In this document: positions 63 through 3,963 of the stretch, piece after piece | How positions within the stretch are numbered: position 1 is the first letter of the stretch | Layout of the letters: every line of letters starts with the position of its first letter | Source: Candidatus Aminicenantes bacterium UBA6072 | Lineage (GTDB): Bacteria; Acidobacteriota; Aminicenantia; UBA2199 | Direction of reading: 5' to 3' | Assembly (NCBI GenBank): GCA_002436105.1 | Contig: DIXU01000001.1 | Coordinates: forward strand, 265,500-329,499 | Length of the DNA stretch: 64,000 nucleotides | Translations under genes and position numbers: made by a program | The notes under the pieces: generated by a model | The model's database searches: none | Told to the model about the DNA's origin: nothing | What the model saw: the letters and a program-made list of their open reading frames with translations, nothing else

Positions 63-1505
63 TCAGGATTTCCCCCACGGCACGGTCTCCGAGGTCAGGC
101 CGGCCGCCTGAAGGAAATTCCGGTAGCAGTCGTGGGGGTTGGCCATGTTGAAATCGCCGGTCATGGTATAGGCCAATCCCGGGCAGCTGCCGTTGCAAAA
201 GGGGGCCCATTCGCAATCCCTGCAGCCGGGAACGCTCGTCATCGGGATCTGCCGCCGTTCCTTGAGCGCCTGCAGCGTGGGATCGGCCTTCCAAATGGTC
301 TGAATGGAATCCCGGTTGATGCGCCCGAGCTCCAGCCCGGCCAGCATGTTGCAGGGCGAGATGATGCCGTCGTGGTGCACCGCCAGCTTGTTGTACATGC
401 AGCCGCAGGCGGTCAGGAAGCCCATTCGCCAGCGCTTGGCCTTTTCGCCGGTAGCCCTGGCATGCTCCATCTCGCCGTACGATTTCCATTTGGCCAATGG
501 CCCGGCCGTGGCATTGATGCGGCCGCTGTGTTTCTCCTCCAGGCGGATCAATGCCTTCATCGCCTGGAATTGCTGCCCCGGCAGCAGGGTGATTCCGGCC
601 TGGTTGTCGCAGCCCGCCCCCATGGGCATGGCGTCGTTGGTGCCTATACTGTGCAGCCCAACGTCTTCCAGAAGCAATTTCGCGATGTTATCGAGGTCTT
701 CGACGTTATGCCGATTGATGGTCACCCGCGAGGTCGCCGGAAAGCCCGCCTCCTTCAGGAGCCGTAGGCCGCGAATCGCCCTCTCGAACGAGCCCTTGCC
801 CCGGCTCTTGTCGTGGATTTCGGCGCAGGAGCCGTCGATCGACACCTGGATGGAGTTCAGCCGCAGCCGGCGCTTTTTTTCTTCCAGGCGCGCGATCATC
901 CTTTCGTCGATCAGCGTGCCGTTGCTCAGGATCGAGAAACTCATGCGTTTTTCGATGATCCGATCGATCAGATCAAAGAGGTCCTTACGGACAAAAACCT
1001 CGCCGCCGCTCAGGGTCAGGGTGCGCACGCCCAGCCGGCCCAGCTCGTCAAAAAAAGTCAGCCATTCCGTTGTGGAAAGATCGGGCCGGTCGTGCATCTC
1101 GTGAGCATAAAAGCAATACTCGCAATGGAGATTGCACTTGCCGGTCAATGAAATGTCGAAATCTCCCGGCCGGTCCGAGATTTCGGCGTACTCTTCGGGA
1201 GCGAGCCGCTGCAAGCCTTCCGGCGCGACCTCGATGAATTCGCCTTCCAGGAGCTCGCCCATGAAGTCGCAGACGTCTTTAAAAATGTCCTCATCGGGCG
1301 CCCCCTCATAATCCTCGAGCAGGGCGCGGGCGATCTCCTCGGCGCTGTTGCCGCCGTCGAGCTTCCGCCAGACCGCGAATCCCGTTTGATTGATGACCTT
1401 GTCCCGGCCCGCATCCGGGTTGAAAAGGATGGCATTGTCGCCCTGGCGGCACGTGGAGATTTTCGGGGCCCTTCCGTACTTTATCCGAAAATCGAGCTCT
1501 TTCAT
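63..1505 (-). CDS. Radical SAM/SPASM-domain peptide-modifying enzyme with N-terminal PqqD-like RiPP recognition element
   Basis: 480-aa ORF. The N-terminal ~95 aa resemble PqqD/RRE (ILFNPDAGRDKVINQTGFAVWRKLDGGNSAEEIARALLEDY). A CNLHCEYCFY CxxxCxxC radical-SAM cluster motif follows. The C-terminal segment is Cys-rich (7 Cys; CNMLAG...PGCRDCEWAPFCNGSCPG...HDCY), typical of a SPASM/twitch auxiliary cluster domain. Confidence 0.85.
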   Translation of the reverse strand: MKELDFRIKYGRAPKISTCRQGDNAILFNPDAGRDKVINQTGFAVWRKLDGGNSAEEIARALLEDYEGAPDEDIFKDVCDFMGELLEGEFIEVAPEGLQRLAPEEYAEISDRPGDFDISLTGKCNLHCEYCFYAHEMHDRPDLSTTEWLTFFDELGRLGVRTLTLSGGEVFVRKDLFDLIDRIIEKRMSFSILSNGTLIDERMIARLEEKKRRLRLNSIQVSIDGSCAEIHDKSRGKGSFERAIRGLRLLKEAGFPATSRVTINRHNVEDLDNIAKLLLEDVGLHSIGTNDAMPMGAGCDNQAGITLLPGQQFQAMKALIRLEEKHSGRINATAGPLAKWKSYGEMEHARATGEKAKRWRMGFLTACGCMYNKLAVHHDGIISPCNMLAGLELGRINRDSIQTIWKADPTLQALKERRQIPMTSVPGCRDCEWAPFCNGSCPGLAYTMTGDFNMANPHDCYRNFLQAAGLTSETVPWGKS

Positions 1506-1604
1506 CTGCGAACCGAAGATCTCCCCGATCGATCACGCCCTGGGCAAGAATCGTTAGGGGGTAGTTTATGGCAATCTCAGGGATTTGTCAAACGGATATC
1601 GCTG

Positions 1605-2125
1605 GGGCGAGGGGATGCCACGAAGCCGAAGGTTCCATGTTCCACGTTCCATGTTCCACGTTCCATGTTCCACGTTCCACGTTCCATGTTCCACGTTCCA
1701 TGTTCCATGTTCCACGTTCCATGTTCCACGTTCCATGTTCCACGTTCCATGTTCCACGTTCCACGTTCCATGTTTGCAACAGATGTAGTTATTAATTGGG
1801 AATTTGGTGCTTGGTATTTGGCATTTAAGTCCTAATATTGGCTTTTTTGACCGTAAACCGTTTACTGTCTACCGTCAACCGATTGGAATTACGAGCAATG
1901 GTATTTGTCGTTATGCGTTATCCTTGATGAGAAAGAACCAGAGATGATCTTCTCTCTGACTATCACTACCACTATCACTACCACTCAGGGCTGTTAGCTC
2001 TCCTGCTAACACGATCACTAACACTACCATTCGGCTTGTTTTTCGTTCTTGCTGACACTGACACTGTCACTGACACTGGATTCCGTTCTGGTCTCCGGCT
2101 ACCACTATCACTACCACTGATCCTG
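1605..2125. repeat. Composite intergenic repeat element, copy A (heptamer array + GGTGCTTGG module + ACCGTAAACCG module + GATGAGAAAGAAC module + TNNCAC hexamer arrays)
   Basis: Large blocks are near-identical to 3972-4400 (same orientation) and to 5548-5885 (reverse complement). Examples are GGGGATGCCRCGAAGCCGAAGG, GGAATTTGGTGCTTGG, GACCGTAAACCG, GCAATGGTATT and GATGAGAAAGAAC. Copies A and B additionally share CTATCACTACCACT, TTCTTGCTGACACTGACACTGTCACTGACACTGG and a GTTAGC-N6-GCTAAC hairpin. Copy A lies between the divergent rSAM and ABC genes and ends in the ABC promoter region. Confidence 0.8.
1632..1771. repeat. (GTTCCAY)n heptanucleotide tandem array, about 20 units, the VNTR-like module of copy A
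   Basis: Direct reading shows alternating GTTCCAC/GTTCCAT units. Homologous arrays of about 7 units (4015-4066) and about 5 units (5810-5845, inverted) occur in copies B and C. On the minus strand the 21-nt period encodes (M/V)E(H/R)GTWN in all three frames. Confidence 0.85.
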
Positions 2126-2134
2126 ATAATGCAC

Positions 2135-2140
2135 TATAAT
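2135..2140 (+). promoter_or_regulatory. Candidate -10 box (gcacTATAATg) for the ABC exporter gene
   Basis: TATAAT hexamer 9-60 nt upstream of the candidate starts. The same gcTATAAT pattern recurs upstream of many genes in the window (5905-5910, 9672-9677, 32162-32167, 36605-36610, 50448-50453). Confidence 0.4.
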
Positions 2141-2148
2141 GACCTCCA

Positions 2149-3963
2149 ATGACATCCTGGTTCTCATACCTGAAAGGCGCCTGGGCGCGCAAGATGCCCG
2201 CGGACAAGATCAATCCGTCAGCGCGGGACAAGAAAAAAACCCGCGACGCCCTGAAGAACCTGCTCCCTATTGTAAAGCGCCACTGGAAAAAGGGGGCGTT
2301 GGGCGCGGCGCTGATCCTGCTGACCTCGCTGCTGGCTTTCCCCGGCCCGATGATCACCCGCTTTTTGATCGACAAGGTGATACTCGGCAAGCAACTCAGG
2401 CTGCTGCTGGGCGTGATCCTGCTGCTGGCAACGATCAAGGTCGCCGGCATCCTCTTCGGCATCCTGCAGCAGTTTTATTTCGCCCGCTTCGAGCAGGAGG
2501 TGCTGCTGGAGATCCAGCAGACCCTGTTCGACCGCACCCTGCGCCTGCCCAAGGCATTCTTCGACGACAAGGAGACCGGCTACCTGATGTCGCGGCTGCT
2601 GGGCGACGTCAACGGCGTGCGCTGGTTCTTCTCCTCGACCATCGTCCACATCTTCACCCAGTCGATCCGCTTCGCGGGCGGCGCCGTTTTCCTGGTCTAC
2701 CTCAACTGGCGCCTGGCGCTGGCCGTGCTGGTGGTGCTGCCGCTGATGTTCGCGGCCGTCCGCTTTTTCGGCCGCAGGATGCGCGTGCTGAGCCACCACG
2801 GCATGGAGCGCCACGCCGAGGTCTACCAGTCGGTGCAGGAGTCGCTCTCCCAGACCTCGCTGATCAAGGCCTTCGCCACCGAGAAAAGGACGCTGAACTC
2901 GCTGACCGGCAAGCTGCGCGCCTCGCTGCAGCTGGGCATGGAGCAGAACGTCTTCGGCTCGCTGGCCAACCTGGCCATCGGCTTCGGCCCCGACCTGGCC
3001 CACCTGATCGTGCTGGCCGGCGGCGCCGTCCTGATCATCCGCGGCGAGTGGAGCCTGGGCTCGCTGCTGGCCTTCCAGTCCTACGTCGGCTTTGTCTACG
3101 GCCCGGCCCAGTTCCTGGCCACGGCCAACTTCCAGCTGCAGGGGGCCATGGCCTCGCTGGAGCGGGTTTCGGCCTTGTTCGACGTCGTCCCCGAGGAAAA
3201 CGAGGAGACGGGTGAAAAGGTCGGGCGCCTGCGCGGCGAGATCGATTTCCGCCAGGTCGGCTTCTCCTACAACGGCAAGGAAACGGTGCTGGACGACGTT
3301 TCGTTCTCGGTCCGGGCCGGCGAGCACGTCGCCATCATCGGCCCCAGCGGCGTGGGCAAGACCACGCTGGTCAGCCTGCTGCTCCAGTTCTACCGGCCTC
3401 AGCGGGGGCAGATCCTGGTCGACGGCCGGCCGGCGGTCGAGTACGAGCTGCGCTCGCTGCGCCGGCGCATCGGCTACGTCCCCCAGTCGCCGACCCTGCT
3501 GAAAGGGACGATCGCCGACAACCTGCGCTACGGCGACCCGGAGACGGCGGCAGCGGGACTGGAAAGGGCGGCGCGCGCCGCCGGCATCCACGACTTCATC
3601 GCCTCCCTGCCCGACGGTTACCATTCGCTGGTAGGCGAGCGCGGGGTCAATTTCTCCGAAGGGCAGAAGCAGCGCCTGGCCATCGCCCGCGCCCTGGTCA
3701 AGGACCCCGACATCGTGATCCTCGACGAGCCGACCTCGGCCCTGGACTCGCGGACCGAGGCCTCGATCTTCGCCACCCTGCCCGAGATGGTGAAAGGCAA
3801 GACGCTGTTCATCGTCGCCCACCGCCTGAGCACCATCCGCCAGAGCGACCGCATCCTCTGCTTCAACGAAAAGGGATTGGTCGGCGACGGCCGGCACGAA
3901 GAACTCAAGGAAAATTGCCCGTATTACCAGGAGCTGCTCAGGAGCCAGGAAGTCAAGAACTGA
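2149..3963 (+). CDS. ABC transporter, fused permease/ATP-binding exporter (ABCB-type, RiPP/peptide-exporter-like)
   Basis: 604 aa with an N-terminal 6-TM region. Walker A is GPSGVGKTT, the ABC signature is LSEGQKQRLAIARAL and Walker B is IVILDEPTSALD. The true start may be the internal Met at about 2194 (MPADKIN...). Confidence 0.9.
   Translation: MTSWFSYLKGAWARKMPADKINPSARDKKKTRDALKNLLPIVKRHWKKGALGAALILLTSLLAFPGPMITRFLIDKVILGKQLRLLLGVILLLATIKVAGILFGILQQFYFARFEQEVLLEIQQTLFDRTLRLPKAFFDDKETGYLMSRLLGDVNGVRWFFSSTIVHIFTQSIRFAGGAVFLVYLNWRLALAVLVVLPLMFAAVRFFGRRMRVLSHHGMERHAEVYQSVQESLSQTSLIKAFATEKRTLNSLTGKLRASLQLGMEQNVFGSLANLAIGFGPDLAHLIVLAGGAVLIIRGEWSLGSLLAFQSYVGFVYGPAQFLATANFQLQGAMASLERVSALFDVVPEENEETGEKVGRLRGEIDFRQVGFSYNGKETVLDDVSFSVRAGEHVAIIGPSGVGKTTLVSLLLQFYRPQRGQILVDGRPAVEYELRSLRRRIGYVPQSPTLLKGTIADNLRYGDPETAAAGLERAARAAGIHDFIASLPDGYHSLVGERGVNFSEGQKQRLAIARALVKDPDIVILDEPTSALDSRTEASIFATLPEMVKGKTLFIVAHRLSTIRQSDRILCFNEKGLVGDGRHEELKENCPYYQELLRSQEVKN

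Follow-up and report, generated by a model that had tools for sequence, protein, structure and literature searches.

A SynChlorMet-type gene cassette in a Candidatus Aminicenantes genome and a candidate family of cysteine-repeat precursor peptides

Results

The locus and its operon

The window analyzed here, a 64,000-nt stretch of the genome of Candidatus Aminicenantes bacterium UBA6072 (contig DIXU01000001.1, positions 265,500 to 329,499), opens with two divergently transcribed genes, one encoding a 480-aa radical S-adenosylmethionine (SAM) enzyme and the other an ATP-binding cassette (ABC) transporter, separated by a spacer of 643 nt (1506-2148; Table 1). A first-pass annotation had described the pair as a cryptic module of the kind that makes peptides synthesized on the ribosome and modified after translation (RiPPs). 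Its sequence assigns the enzyme to the ScmE proteins of a putative RiPP family, the SynChlorMet (SCM) cassette, and not to sulfatase maturation or cofactor synthesis. The module therefore belongs to a cassette that is already defined and named, though experimentally uncharacterized, and does not represent a new kind of system.

Only scmE and 43 nt of scmD fall inside the window. The remainder of the operon was read from L001, a 458-kb contig of the European Nucleotide Archive in which window position 1 corresponds to position 11505 and which shows 0 mismatches over the shared 11,000 nt; the exact ScmE protein was found on nine public contigs. Past the window start, downstream of scmE, L001 carries in order scmD, scmF, scmC and an 89-aa open reading frame (ORF), so that a precursor gene lying off-window beyond the radical SAM gene, as the first-pass annotation had allowed for, does have a candidate.

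Table 1. Features of the scmE locus in the window and on the overlapping contig L001
Feature	Position	Strand	Basis and remarks
scmE, peptide maturase with RiPP recognition element (RRE, PqqD-like), radical SAM and SPASM domains, 480 aa	63..1505	-	First operon gene; hidden Markov model (HMM) match, Pfam, Cys set, fold
scmD start, first 43 nt (14 codons) of a 200-aa tandem-PqqD protein	1..43	-	ATG at window 43-41; remainder off-window
ABCB-type half-transporter, transmembrane domain followed by nucleotide-binding domain, 604 aa	2149..3963	+	Pfam ABC_membrane + ABC_tran; no C39 peptidase domain
Putative sigma-70-like scmE promoter, TTGACA-17 nt-TAAACT	1563..1591	-	10/12 consensus positions
Putative TATAAT box of the ABC gene	2135..2140	+	Ends 8 nt before the ABC start codon; read from sequence
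Composite repeat copy A, non-coding	1604..2113	+	Fills most of the divergent spacer; repeat families D1-D7, I1-I25
scmD, 200 aa, tandem PqqD	L001 11463-12065		Best match TIGR04248 ScmD, 61 bits (cutoff 100); also PQQ_PqqD
scmF, 393-aa radical SAM/SPASM protein	L001 12052-13233		Best match TIGR04251 ScmF, 346 bits (cutoff 400); next family 129
scmC, 197 aa, HPr-kinase-like P-loop protein	L001		Precomputed Pfam match PF27840 ScmC
Candidate precursor, 89-aa ORF	L001 13813-14082		Directly after scmC, 4-nt ATGA overlap; ~2.2 kb beyond window start
S26-type signal-peptidase homolog, 223 aa	L001	opposite to scmC and peptide	
ScmD-like PqqD protein, 97 aa	L001	opposite to scmC and peptide	Best match TIGR04248, 67 bits (cutoff 100)

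The radical SAM enzyme and its operon partners

Pfam recognizes three domains in the 480-aa protein, PqqD at residues 26-91 (E 4.6e-11), Radical_SAM at 118-278 (E 2.2e-28) and SPASM at 367-432 (E 3.1e-8). In an alignment of ScmE with 14 homologs of 54-85% identity, the radical SAM motif CxxxCxxC (C124/C128/C131) is invariant, as are the SPASM cysteines C367, C385, C428, C431, C437, C441 and C460, whose arrangement fits by eye the pattern CX10GX4C ... CX2CX5CX3C ... C of a 7-Cys SPASM domain. Domains and invariant cysteines thus agree with the architecture first read from the sequence. When the protein was compared with NCBIfam, it matched TIGR04250 ScmE with 396.1 bits (E 1.2e-118, model positions 2-355 of 358; curated cutoff 400) against 133 bits for the runner-up family, which places it outside the non-RiPP SPASM families. 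The same domain set is found in homologs of 57-84% identity, which carry the name ScmE at NCBI and JGI, those of 57-61% at NCBI.

The AlphaFold2 model of ScmE (predicted local distance difference test score 86.4, predicted template modeling score 0.87) found its best, full-length Foldseek matches in SuiB (5v1q/5v1t), SkfB (6efn), CteB (5why/5wgg) and TigE (8vpo), with E values of 1e-19 to 4e-16 over 418-500 aligned columns at 13-19% sequence identity, followed by the anaerobic sulfatase-maturating enzyme and PqqE. The early suggestion of an architecture shared with SuiB- and CteB-type maturases is borne out by these matches. In a comparison of sequences, SkfB and PqqE come out as the nearest proteins of solved structure.

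ScmC of the Aminicenantes operon looks like a shortened form, its match to TIGR04249 (25 bits, cutoff 125) covering only model positions 121-276 of 292, and among solved structures it gave only marginal P-loop matches (PDB E 0.7). The S26-like proteins show a Ser-Met box (GSSMKGT, GHSMTPS), a VHR box and a GDG/GDN box, a pattern that we take to be of the endoplasmic reticulum/archaeal type (Sec11/SipW-type peptidases); an N-terminal membrane segment was not found in them.

We surveyed 100 scm loci, 80 of them fetched additionally from metagenomes, and counted components in those 44 whose sequence extends 3 kb or more downstream of scmE. ScmF and a PqqD protein were each present in 43/44, an S26/S24-like peptidase in 29/44 and ScmC in 24/44. 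Two metagenome-assembled genomes labeled 'uncultured Clostridia bacterium' (L007 and L009) have 77-78% ScmE identity and the full gene order of the Aminicenantes loci, and their labels are probably wrong.

A candidate precursor peptide family

The 89-aa ORF that follows scmC (MKKTRYEKPTCMDAGPVAAIQGATCSSYGGSALDGCSYGHDPSLHVFCPNGYIATNNCQQYGSQANVGCFTGDSAVMACNLGNSFVIQS) begins with a leader of about 24 residues, MKKxKYEKPxxxDAGxVAAIQGA, and continues into a core with seven Cys, most of them opening a C-x-x-G unit, the units recurring every 10-12 residues. Across five related Aminicenantes loci the first 24 residues are near-constant, while the remainder is variable apart from the Cys and the following Gly. 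A profile of the peptide, run over the 10,580 ORFs of the 100 scm loci, gave 53 matches at E<0.01, of which 52 lie on the scmE strand, mostly 1-3 kb downstream of scmE; the small ORFs recovered include some in scm loci labeled WOR-3, Aegiribacteria, Desulfobacteraceae, Desulfuromonadaceae and Eisenbacteria. Among the 44 loci with sufficient downstream sequence the peptide was found in 37, with one more recognized by eye (38/44, 86%).

The 52 distinct peptides have a median length of 87 aa and a median of 6 Cys, with the first Cys near residue 28. Spacing between successive Cys is 10-12 residues in 80% of intervals, Gly stands at +3 in 78% of Cys units, and Ala, Pro or Val at +6 in 65%. Their cores are rich in Gly, Ser, Ala, Thr and Asn and contain almost no Lys or Arg. 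In the leader, the Tyr and Pro of a Y-x-x-P motif are invariant in a 15-sequence alignment. Six divergent precursors scanned against Pfam and NCBIfam at E values up to 10 matched no family and, to our knowledge, the curated family text of the SCM cassette gives its precursor as unknown.

A word-indexed database search with the peptide profile returned only 9 matches, every one annotated 'hypothetical protein'. By exhaustive profile search of 1.84 billion cluster representatives (50% identity), 511 proteins were retrieved at E<=0.001; among the 150 of these that were listed, nearly all are 65-125 aa long and align from the N-terminus, the few long repeat proteins being false positives. As a reciprocal test, six peptides taken from the exhaustive search alone were examined for their neighbors, and PqqD, radical SAM or ScmC genes were found next to the peptide in 4/5 informative cases. 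The P0135 peptide follows a PqqD-radical SAM/SPASM-radical SAM series and precedes another PqqD protein and an ABC exporter. The P0138 locus (L107), which is archaeal-looking, reads PqqD-radical SAM-radical SAM-peptide-ScmC-236 aa-ABC, all in one direction; its two radical SAM proteins are 44% and 40% identical to ScmE and ScmF of the window strain, its 375-aa ScmE is without the fused PqqD domain, its 236-aa protein is an S26-like peptidase, and its ABC protein is 31% identical to that of the window. A PqqD gene comes after the P0160 peptide and ScmC after the P0211 peptide; the P0186 peptide is an orphan, and the contig of P0258 is too short to judge. A Methanothrix scmE locus was also recovered, with a flank too short to show a peptide. 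From these reciprocal loci, L107 included, we take the recurring set to be ScmD, ScmE, ScmF, the peptide, ScmC, an S26-like peptidase and an ABC exporter.

Inside the window itself, the precursor profile run against all ORFs of at least 20 aa, including those in 1-63 and 1505-2149, reached a best E of 0.25, so that no precursor-like gene is present there, just as the first-pass annotation had seen none.

Several loci hold two or three paralogous Cys-repeat peptides (L007 16982-17335 and 18290-18481; L029 8021-8221; L022 and L023 with two each), some of them adjoining an extra ScmF-like radical SAM gene on the opposite strand, which suggests diversification of precursors within one island.

These data bear on the possibility that the substrate of ScmE is no peptide but, for example, a tetrapyrrole, as for AhbD and NirJ, the small ORF being irrelevant. 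The AhbD and NirJ models do score 122-126 bits on ScmE, similar to the peptide maturase models. ScmE, however, carries a fused PqqD/RRE domain and shares its operon with two or three more PqqD proteins, its best full-length fold matches are RRE-containing peptide maturases, and the peptide co-occurs with scm genes in most loci and is recovered reciprocally, whereas no tetrapyrrole genes were seen in the scm loci. We regard a tetrapyrrole-like substrate as very improbable, and the neighborhoods of the orthologs gave no clear sign of any other non-peptide role. ScmE assignment, maturase fold and co-occurring peptide together uphold the original view of a RiPP-like peptide-maturase module.

The divergent ABC exporter

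Pfam places ABC_membrane at residues 53-319 and ABC_tran at 381-530 of the 604-aa protein and detects no peptidase domain in it. Its top NCBIfam matches are TAP2/MsbA/HlyB-type exporters, all below cutoff, and the PCAT/NHLP models for peptidase-containing transporters (TIGR03796/TIGR03797/TIGR01193) also fall short, scoring 332-339 bits where the cutoffs are 709-853, and 307 bits where it is 524. The protein is a plain ABCB half-transporter. Because it is without a C39 domain, removal of a leader must fall to another protein, for which the S26-like proteins are the obvious candidates.

Of 21 scm loci flanked by 5 kb or more on either side, 18 contain an ABCB-type exporter, as do 13/16 when close relatives are left aside, and ABC identity follows ScmE identity (Spearman 0.78). 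In six loci whose ScmE is 52-62% identical to that of the window, and which are without the other Aminicenantes neighbors, the ABC protein is 53-59% identical over its full length at varied positions and orientations. In L012, L037 and L044 it lies upstream and is read in the same direction; in L090, L104 and L106 it is found 3-7 kb downstream.

An alternative is that the transporter is a housekeeping MsbA-like lipid or drug exporter that stands beside scmE by chance, its conservation in Aminicenantes reflecting synteny by descent. Consistent with this, its best NCBIfam matches are MsbA-related (~390 bits), and in many distant scm loci the neighboring ABC protein is only 28-37% identical to that of the window. 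All close Aminicenantes loci retain the divergent arrangement, and with it the S46 peptidase, diacylglycerol kinase and M14 peptidase genes of the neighborhood; conservation of the pairing in close loci proves little, because unrelated neighbors are equally conserved. The orthologs of 53-59% identity at rearranged positions are what a chance neighbor would not explain: together with the tracking of identities, they imply that one exporter lineage moves with the cassette, and an ABC exporter closes the cassette in both L107 and the P0135 locus. We consider the housekeeping explanation unlikely and propose, from sequence comparisons, that the half-transporter is a real cassette partner that would export the modified peptide, in keeping with the pairing singled out in the first-pass annotation.

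The divergent spacer

By eye, the TTGACA...TAAACT block of the putative scmE promoter recurs in L007-L010, L015 and L031, in the part of the spacer nearest to scmE, the rest of the spacer differing. At the other end, a block reading ATTATAG on the reverse complement adjoins the ABC start in all close relatives, and the position of the predicted TATAAT box suggests that the exporter mRNA may be leaderless or near-leaderless. An Rfam scan of the window found four tRNAs only (9364-9448, 30023-30095, 60935-61096), with no match of any kind in the spacer, and a terminator scan of 1-4500 gave no more sites than shuffled sequence.

Most of the spacer is occupied by a composite repeat of 300-500 nt, of which the window contains three copies (1604-2113, 3978-4370 and 5556-5870). 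The element is built of short-period arrays, namely GTTCCAY heptamers, AGTGRT and CAGTGW hexamers and ACGGTWN heptamers. A pair of direct copies flanks the ABC gene, and the three together occupy the spacers around the ABC gene and a lipoprotein/M50 gene pair. Twenty tandem GTTCCAY heptamers at 1632-1771 are the source of frames encoding GTWN repeats, and shorter arrays lie at 4006-4054 and, inverted, at 5810-5844. Heptamer matches numbered 26 against 0 in shuffles. GTTCCAY arrays occur only in the window strain (window, L001 and L002) and in none of the other ~100 loci, L007-L010, L015 and L031 having other short-period repeats in the same spacers.

The GTWN frames had been pointed out as peptide-like, and they are the only sizeable open frames in 1505-2149, so that one could take them for the precursor peptides. 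Against this, their arrays are confined to one strain, the same array recurs twice more in the window, once inverted, within the composite repeat, all three frames are open on each strand, as is typical of tandem DNA repeats, and the promoter-like site of scmE falls between the array and scmE. The ORFs of 1505-2149 show no precursor-like features, most of them, including all GTWN frames, being read from tandem-repeat arrays, and 1-63 likewise yielded nothing precursor-like. We accordingly reject the GTWN frames as precursors, a role whose probability we put close to nil, and regard them as strain-specific repeat DNA with three copies in the window and none in relatives.

The scmE-ABC spacer of L015 (9120-10001) extends over 881 nt and has a small ORF (RLRNRGFLGKKFLRQHPIVF...) inserted between GC-rich hairpin-like repeats, which looks like a small mobile insertion.

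Neighboring genes and a second cassette

Beyond the ABC gene, the lipoprotein and M50-like genes (4470-4886 and 4920-5543) and a gene for an S46 peptidase had been offered as possible processing partners or coincidental neighbors. The second description is the right one: these genes adjoin scmE only in seven close Aminicenantes loci, which rules them out as partners and leaves them as coincidental, lineage-only neighbors.

The M50-like protein scores 25.1 with Pfam against a gathering threshold of 27.2. Read by eye, it has HDRVR in place of HExxH and NLLPIPPLAAS in place of NxxPxxxLDG, so that the catalytic motifs are apparently lost and the protein is, on its sequence, probably an inactive protease homolog. 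The lipoprotein/M50 pair sits between inverted copies of the composite repeat (3978-4370 and 5556-5870), with arms that are 84-94% complementary over as many as 112 nt. With the ABC and S46 genes as reference, the pair is reversed in L008, L009, L010, L015 and L031 and oriented in L007 as in the window. At some point in its evolution this segment has flipped, perhaps through recombination between the repeat copies.

L001 carries a second cassette at 15472-21443, 4-10 kb past the start of the window. It includes a 62-aa ORF (MKKRKWKTPKLEIISRV...VLTACK...CGADIVGNCAACS) that has a homolog in L008, followed by a methyltransferase, a 664-aa radical SAM-ScmC fusion, a 392-aa radical SAM protein, a PqqD protein, an S24/S26-like protein and another radical SAM protein. 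These genes probably make up another RiPP pathway, one that has a precursor type of its own.

Discussion

Proposed pathway

We consider it likely that scmE is the first gene of a scmE-scmD-scmF-scmC-precursor operon forming a SynChlorMet-type RiPP cassette, that its substrate is the 89-aa peptide encoded after scmC and that the product is exported by the divergent ABC protein. This view is built on gene content, domains, fold, conservation and co-occurrence, from which we infer leader binding, chemistry, leader cleavage and export. The leader would be bound by a PqqD-type element, which could be the N-terminal domain of ScmE, the tandem PqqD protein ScmD or the extra 97-aa PqqD protein. ScmE and ScmF, both radical SAM/SPASM enzymes, would then modify the core at or around each Cys. 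Radical SAM/SPASM enzymes acting on Cys-repeat cores typically make thioethers, as in sactipeptides, ranthipeptides and the QhpD system; for this reason thioether cross-links of the sactionine or ranthionine type appear the likeliest product, although, being drawn by analogy, thioether chemistry at the Cys of the core has in our estimate about an even chance of being correct. ScmC, with its HPr-kinase-like P-loop, may contribute an ATP-dependent step, possibly a phosphorylation. The soluble, signal-peptidase-like S26 protease would take off the leader, and the ABC half-transporter would carry the product out of the cell.

Several observations weigh against this proposal. All four Scm models score under their curated cutoffs on the proteins of this operon (396/400, 346/400, 61/100 and 25/125). 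The sactipeptide and ranthipeptide models stay far below theirs on ScmE (StsB 128/625, PapB 91/340, AlbA 73/850, SkfB 73/300, in bits/cutoff), so that ScmE is not classed among those maturases, and no single acceptor residue is conserved in the cores of the 52 distinct peptides. ScmC is a short protein whose similarity to HPr kinase amounts to ~50 residues around the P-loop (24 bits). No precursor was detected in 6/44 loci, and a search for missed ones (L018, L060, L062/63, L067, L082) gave nothing convincing; to these are added the orphan P0186 peptide and the low identity of many neighboring ABC proteins. A literature search on SynChlorMet/Scm proteins and Aminicenantes RiPPs, within the library that could be queried, found no relevant paper or experiment, so the chemistry is argued by analogy.

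The cassette might instead make a peptide-derived redox cofactor like pyrroloquinoline quinone (PQQ) or mycofactocin, and not an exported natural product. Its parts list is alike (PqqD chaperone, radical SAM/SPASM enzyme, small peptide and peptidase), PqqE and the mycofactocin maturase are among the NCBIfam matches of ScmE at 99-108 bits, and PqqE is a fold match of the ScmE model. Cofactor precursors such as those of PQQ and mycofactocin, however, carry a single short reactive motif that is strongly conserved, and they have no exporter dedicated to them, whereas the core described here is long, with a median of six Cys units, and varies strongly except at Cys and Gly, loci encode several paralogous peptides, and an ABC exporter recurs with the cassette. 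We therefore think a cofactor product distinctly improbable, less so than a tetrapyrrole-like substrate.

Significance

Although curated models exist for the SCM cassette and genome annotation names it as a matter of routine, our literature search found no paper devoted to it. Assignment to this cassette explains the module that had seemed cryptic, and neither the heptamer repeats nor the neighboring peptidase genes are part of it. What the present analysis contributes is a well-supported candidate precursor family that recurs across phyla (no fewer than 511 clusters at 50% identity), together with a probable leader peptidase and an exporter for the cassette, and all of these except the exporter lie just outside the window.

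More tentatively, and with a probability that we place somewhat short of even, the peptides with a Y-x-x-P leader and C-x-x-G repeats may be the missing SCM substrates and represent a new RiPP class. In such a class, cores of ~60 residues with 5-7 Cys at 10-12 spacing would have each Cys cross-linked by one or other of the two radical SAM/SPASM enzymes into a chain of small rings; an HPr-kinase-like protein and, as leader peptidase, a soluble signal-peptidase homolog of the endoplasmic reticulum/archaeal type would take part in maturation, and a dedicated ABC transporter would export the product; the class would extend over Aminicenantes, WOR-3, Desulfobacterota, Aegiribacteria and Eisenbacteria among Bacteria and probably into Archaea. 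If true, a new multi-cross-linked peptide scaffold from uncultivated anaerobes could be added.

Comparison with known systems

With SuiB, CteB, SkfB and TigE, ScmE shares its three-domain architecture and fold, the CxxxCxxC motif and a 7-Cys SPASM domain. It differs in that two radical SAM/SPASM enzymes stand in one cassette and in its proposed substrate, which would present 5-7 C-x-x-G units, whereas SuiB forms one Lys-Trp link and CteB and SkfB one to few thioethers.

The candidate precursors resemble those of ranthipeptides and sactipeptides (PapB/freyrasin, SCIFF/CteA) in combining a leader and a core of regularly repeated Cys with a radical SAM/SPASM maturase. PapB/freyrasin has six C-x3-D units. 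In the peptides described here, by contrast, the period is 10-12, Gly is found at +3, no Asp, Glu or Asn acceptor is conserved, and the core, at ~60 residues, is much longer.

Like paeninodin-type lasso clusters, the cassette includes within a RiPP cluster a P-loop protein related to the C-terminal domain of HPr kinase, and HPr kinase genes have been noted in lasso clusters of anaerobes (2014 genome-mining paper, PMC4289311); unlike them, it has no lasso cyclase or protease.

The closest counterpart is the SCM cassette itself (TIGR04250 ScmE, TIGR04251 ScmF, TIGR04248 ScmD, TIGR04249/PF27840 ScmC), the corresponding Scm model being the best or near-best match of each protein. As in that cassette, two PqqE-like radical SAM/SPASM enzymes, PqqD proteins and a putative, HPr-kinase-like ScmC are found in one operon. 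Unlike the TIGR04250 model, whose alignment begins at residue 113, ScmE here carries a fused N-terminal PqqD/RRE domain; ScmD and ScmC also depart from their models, the former being a tandem PqqD protein and the latter 197 aa long. To the SCM set the present analysis adds a candidate precursor, a putative dedicated S26-like peptidase and a proposed ABC exporter.

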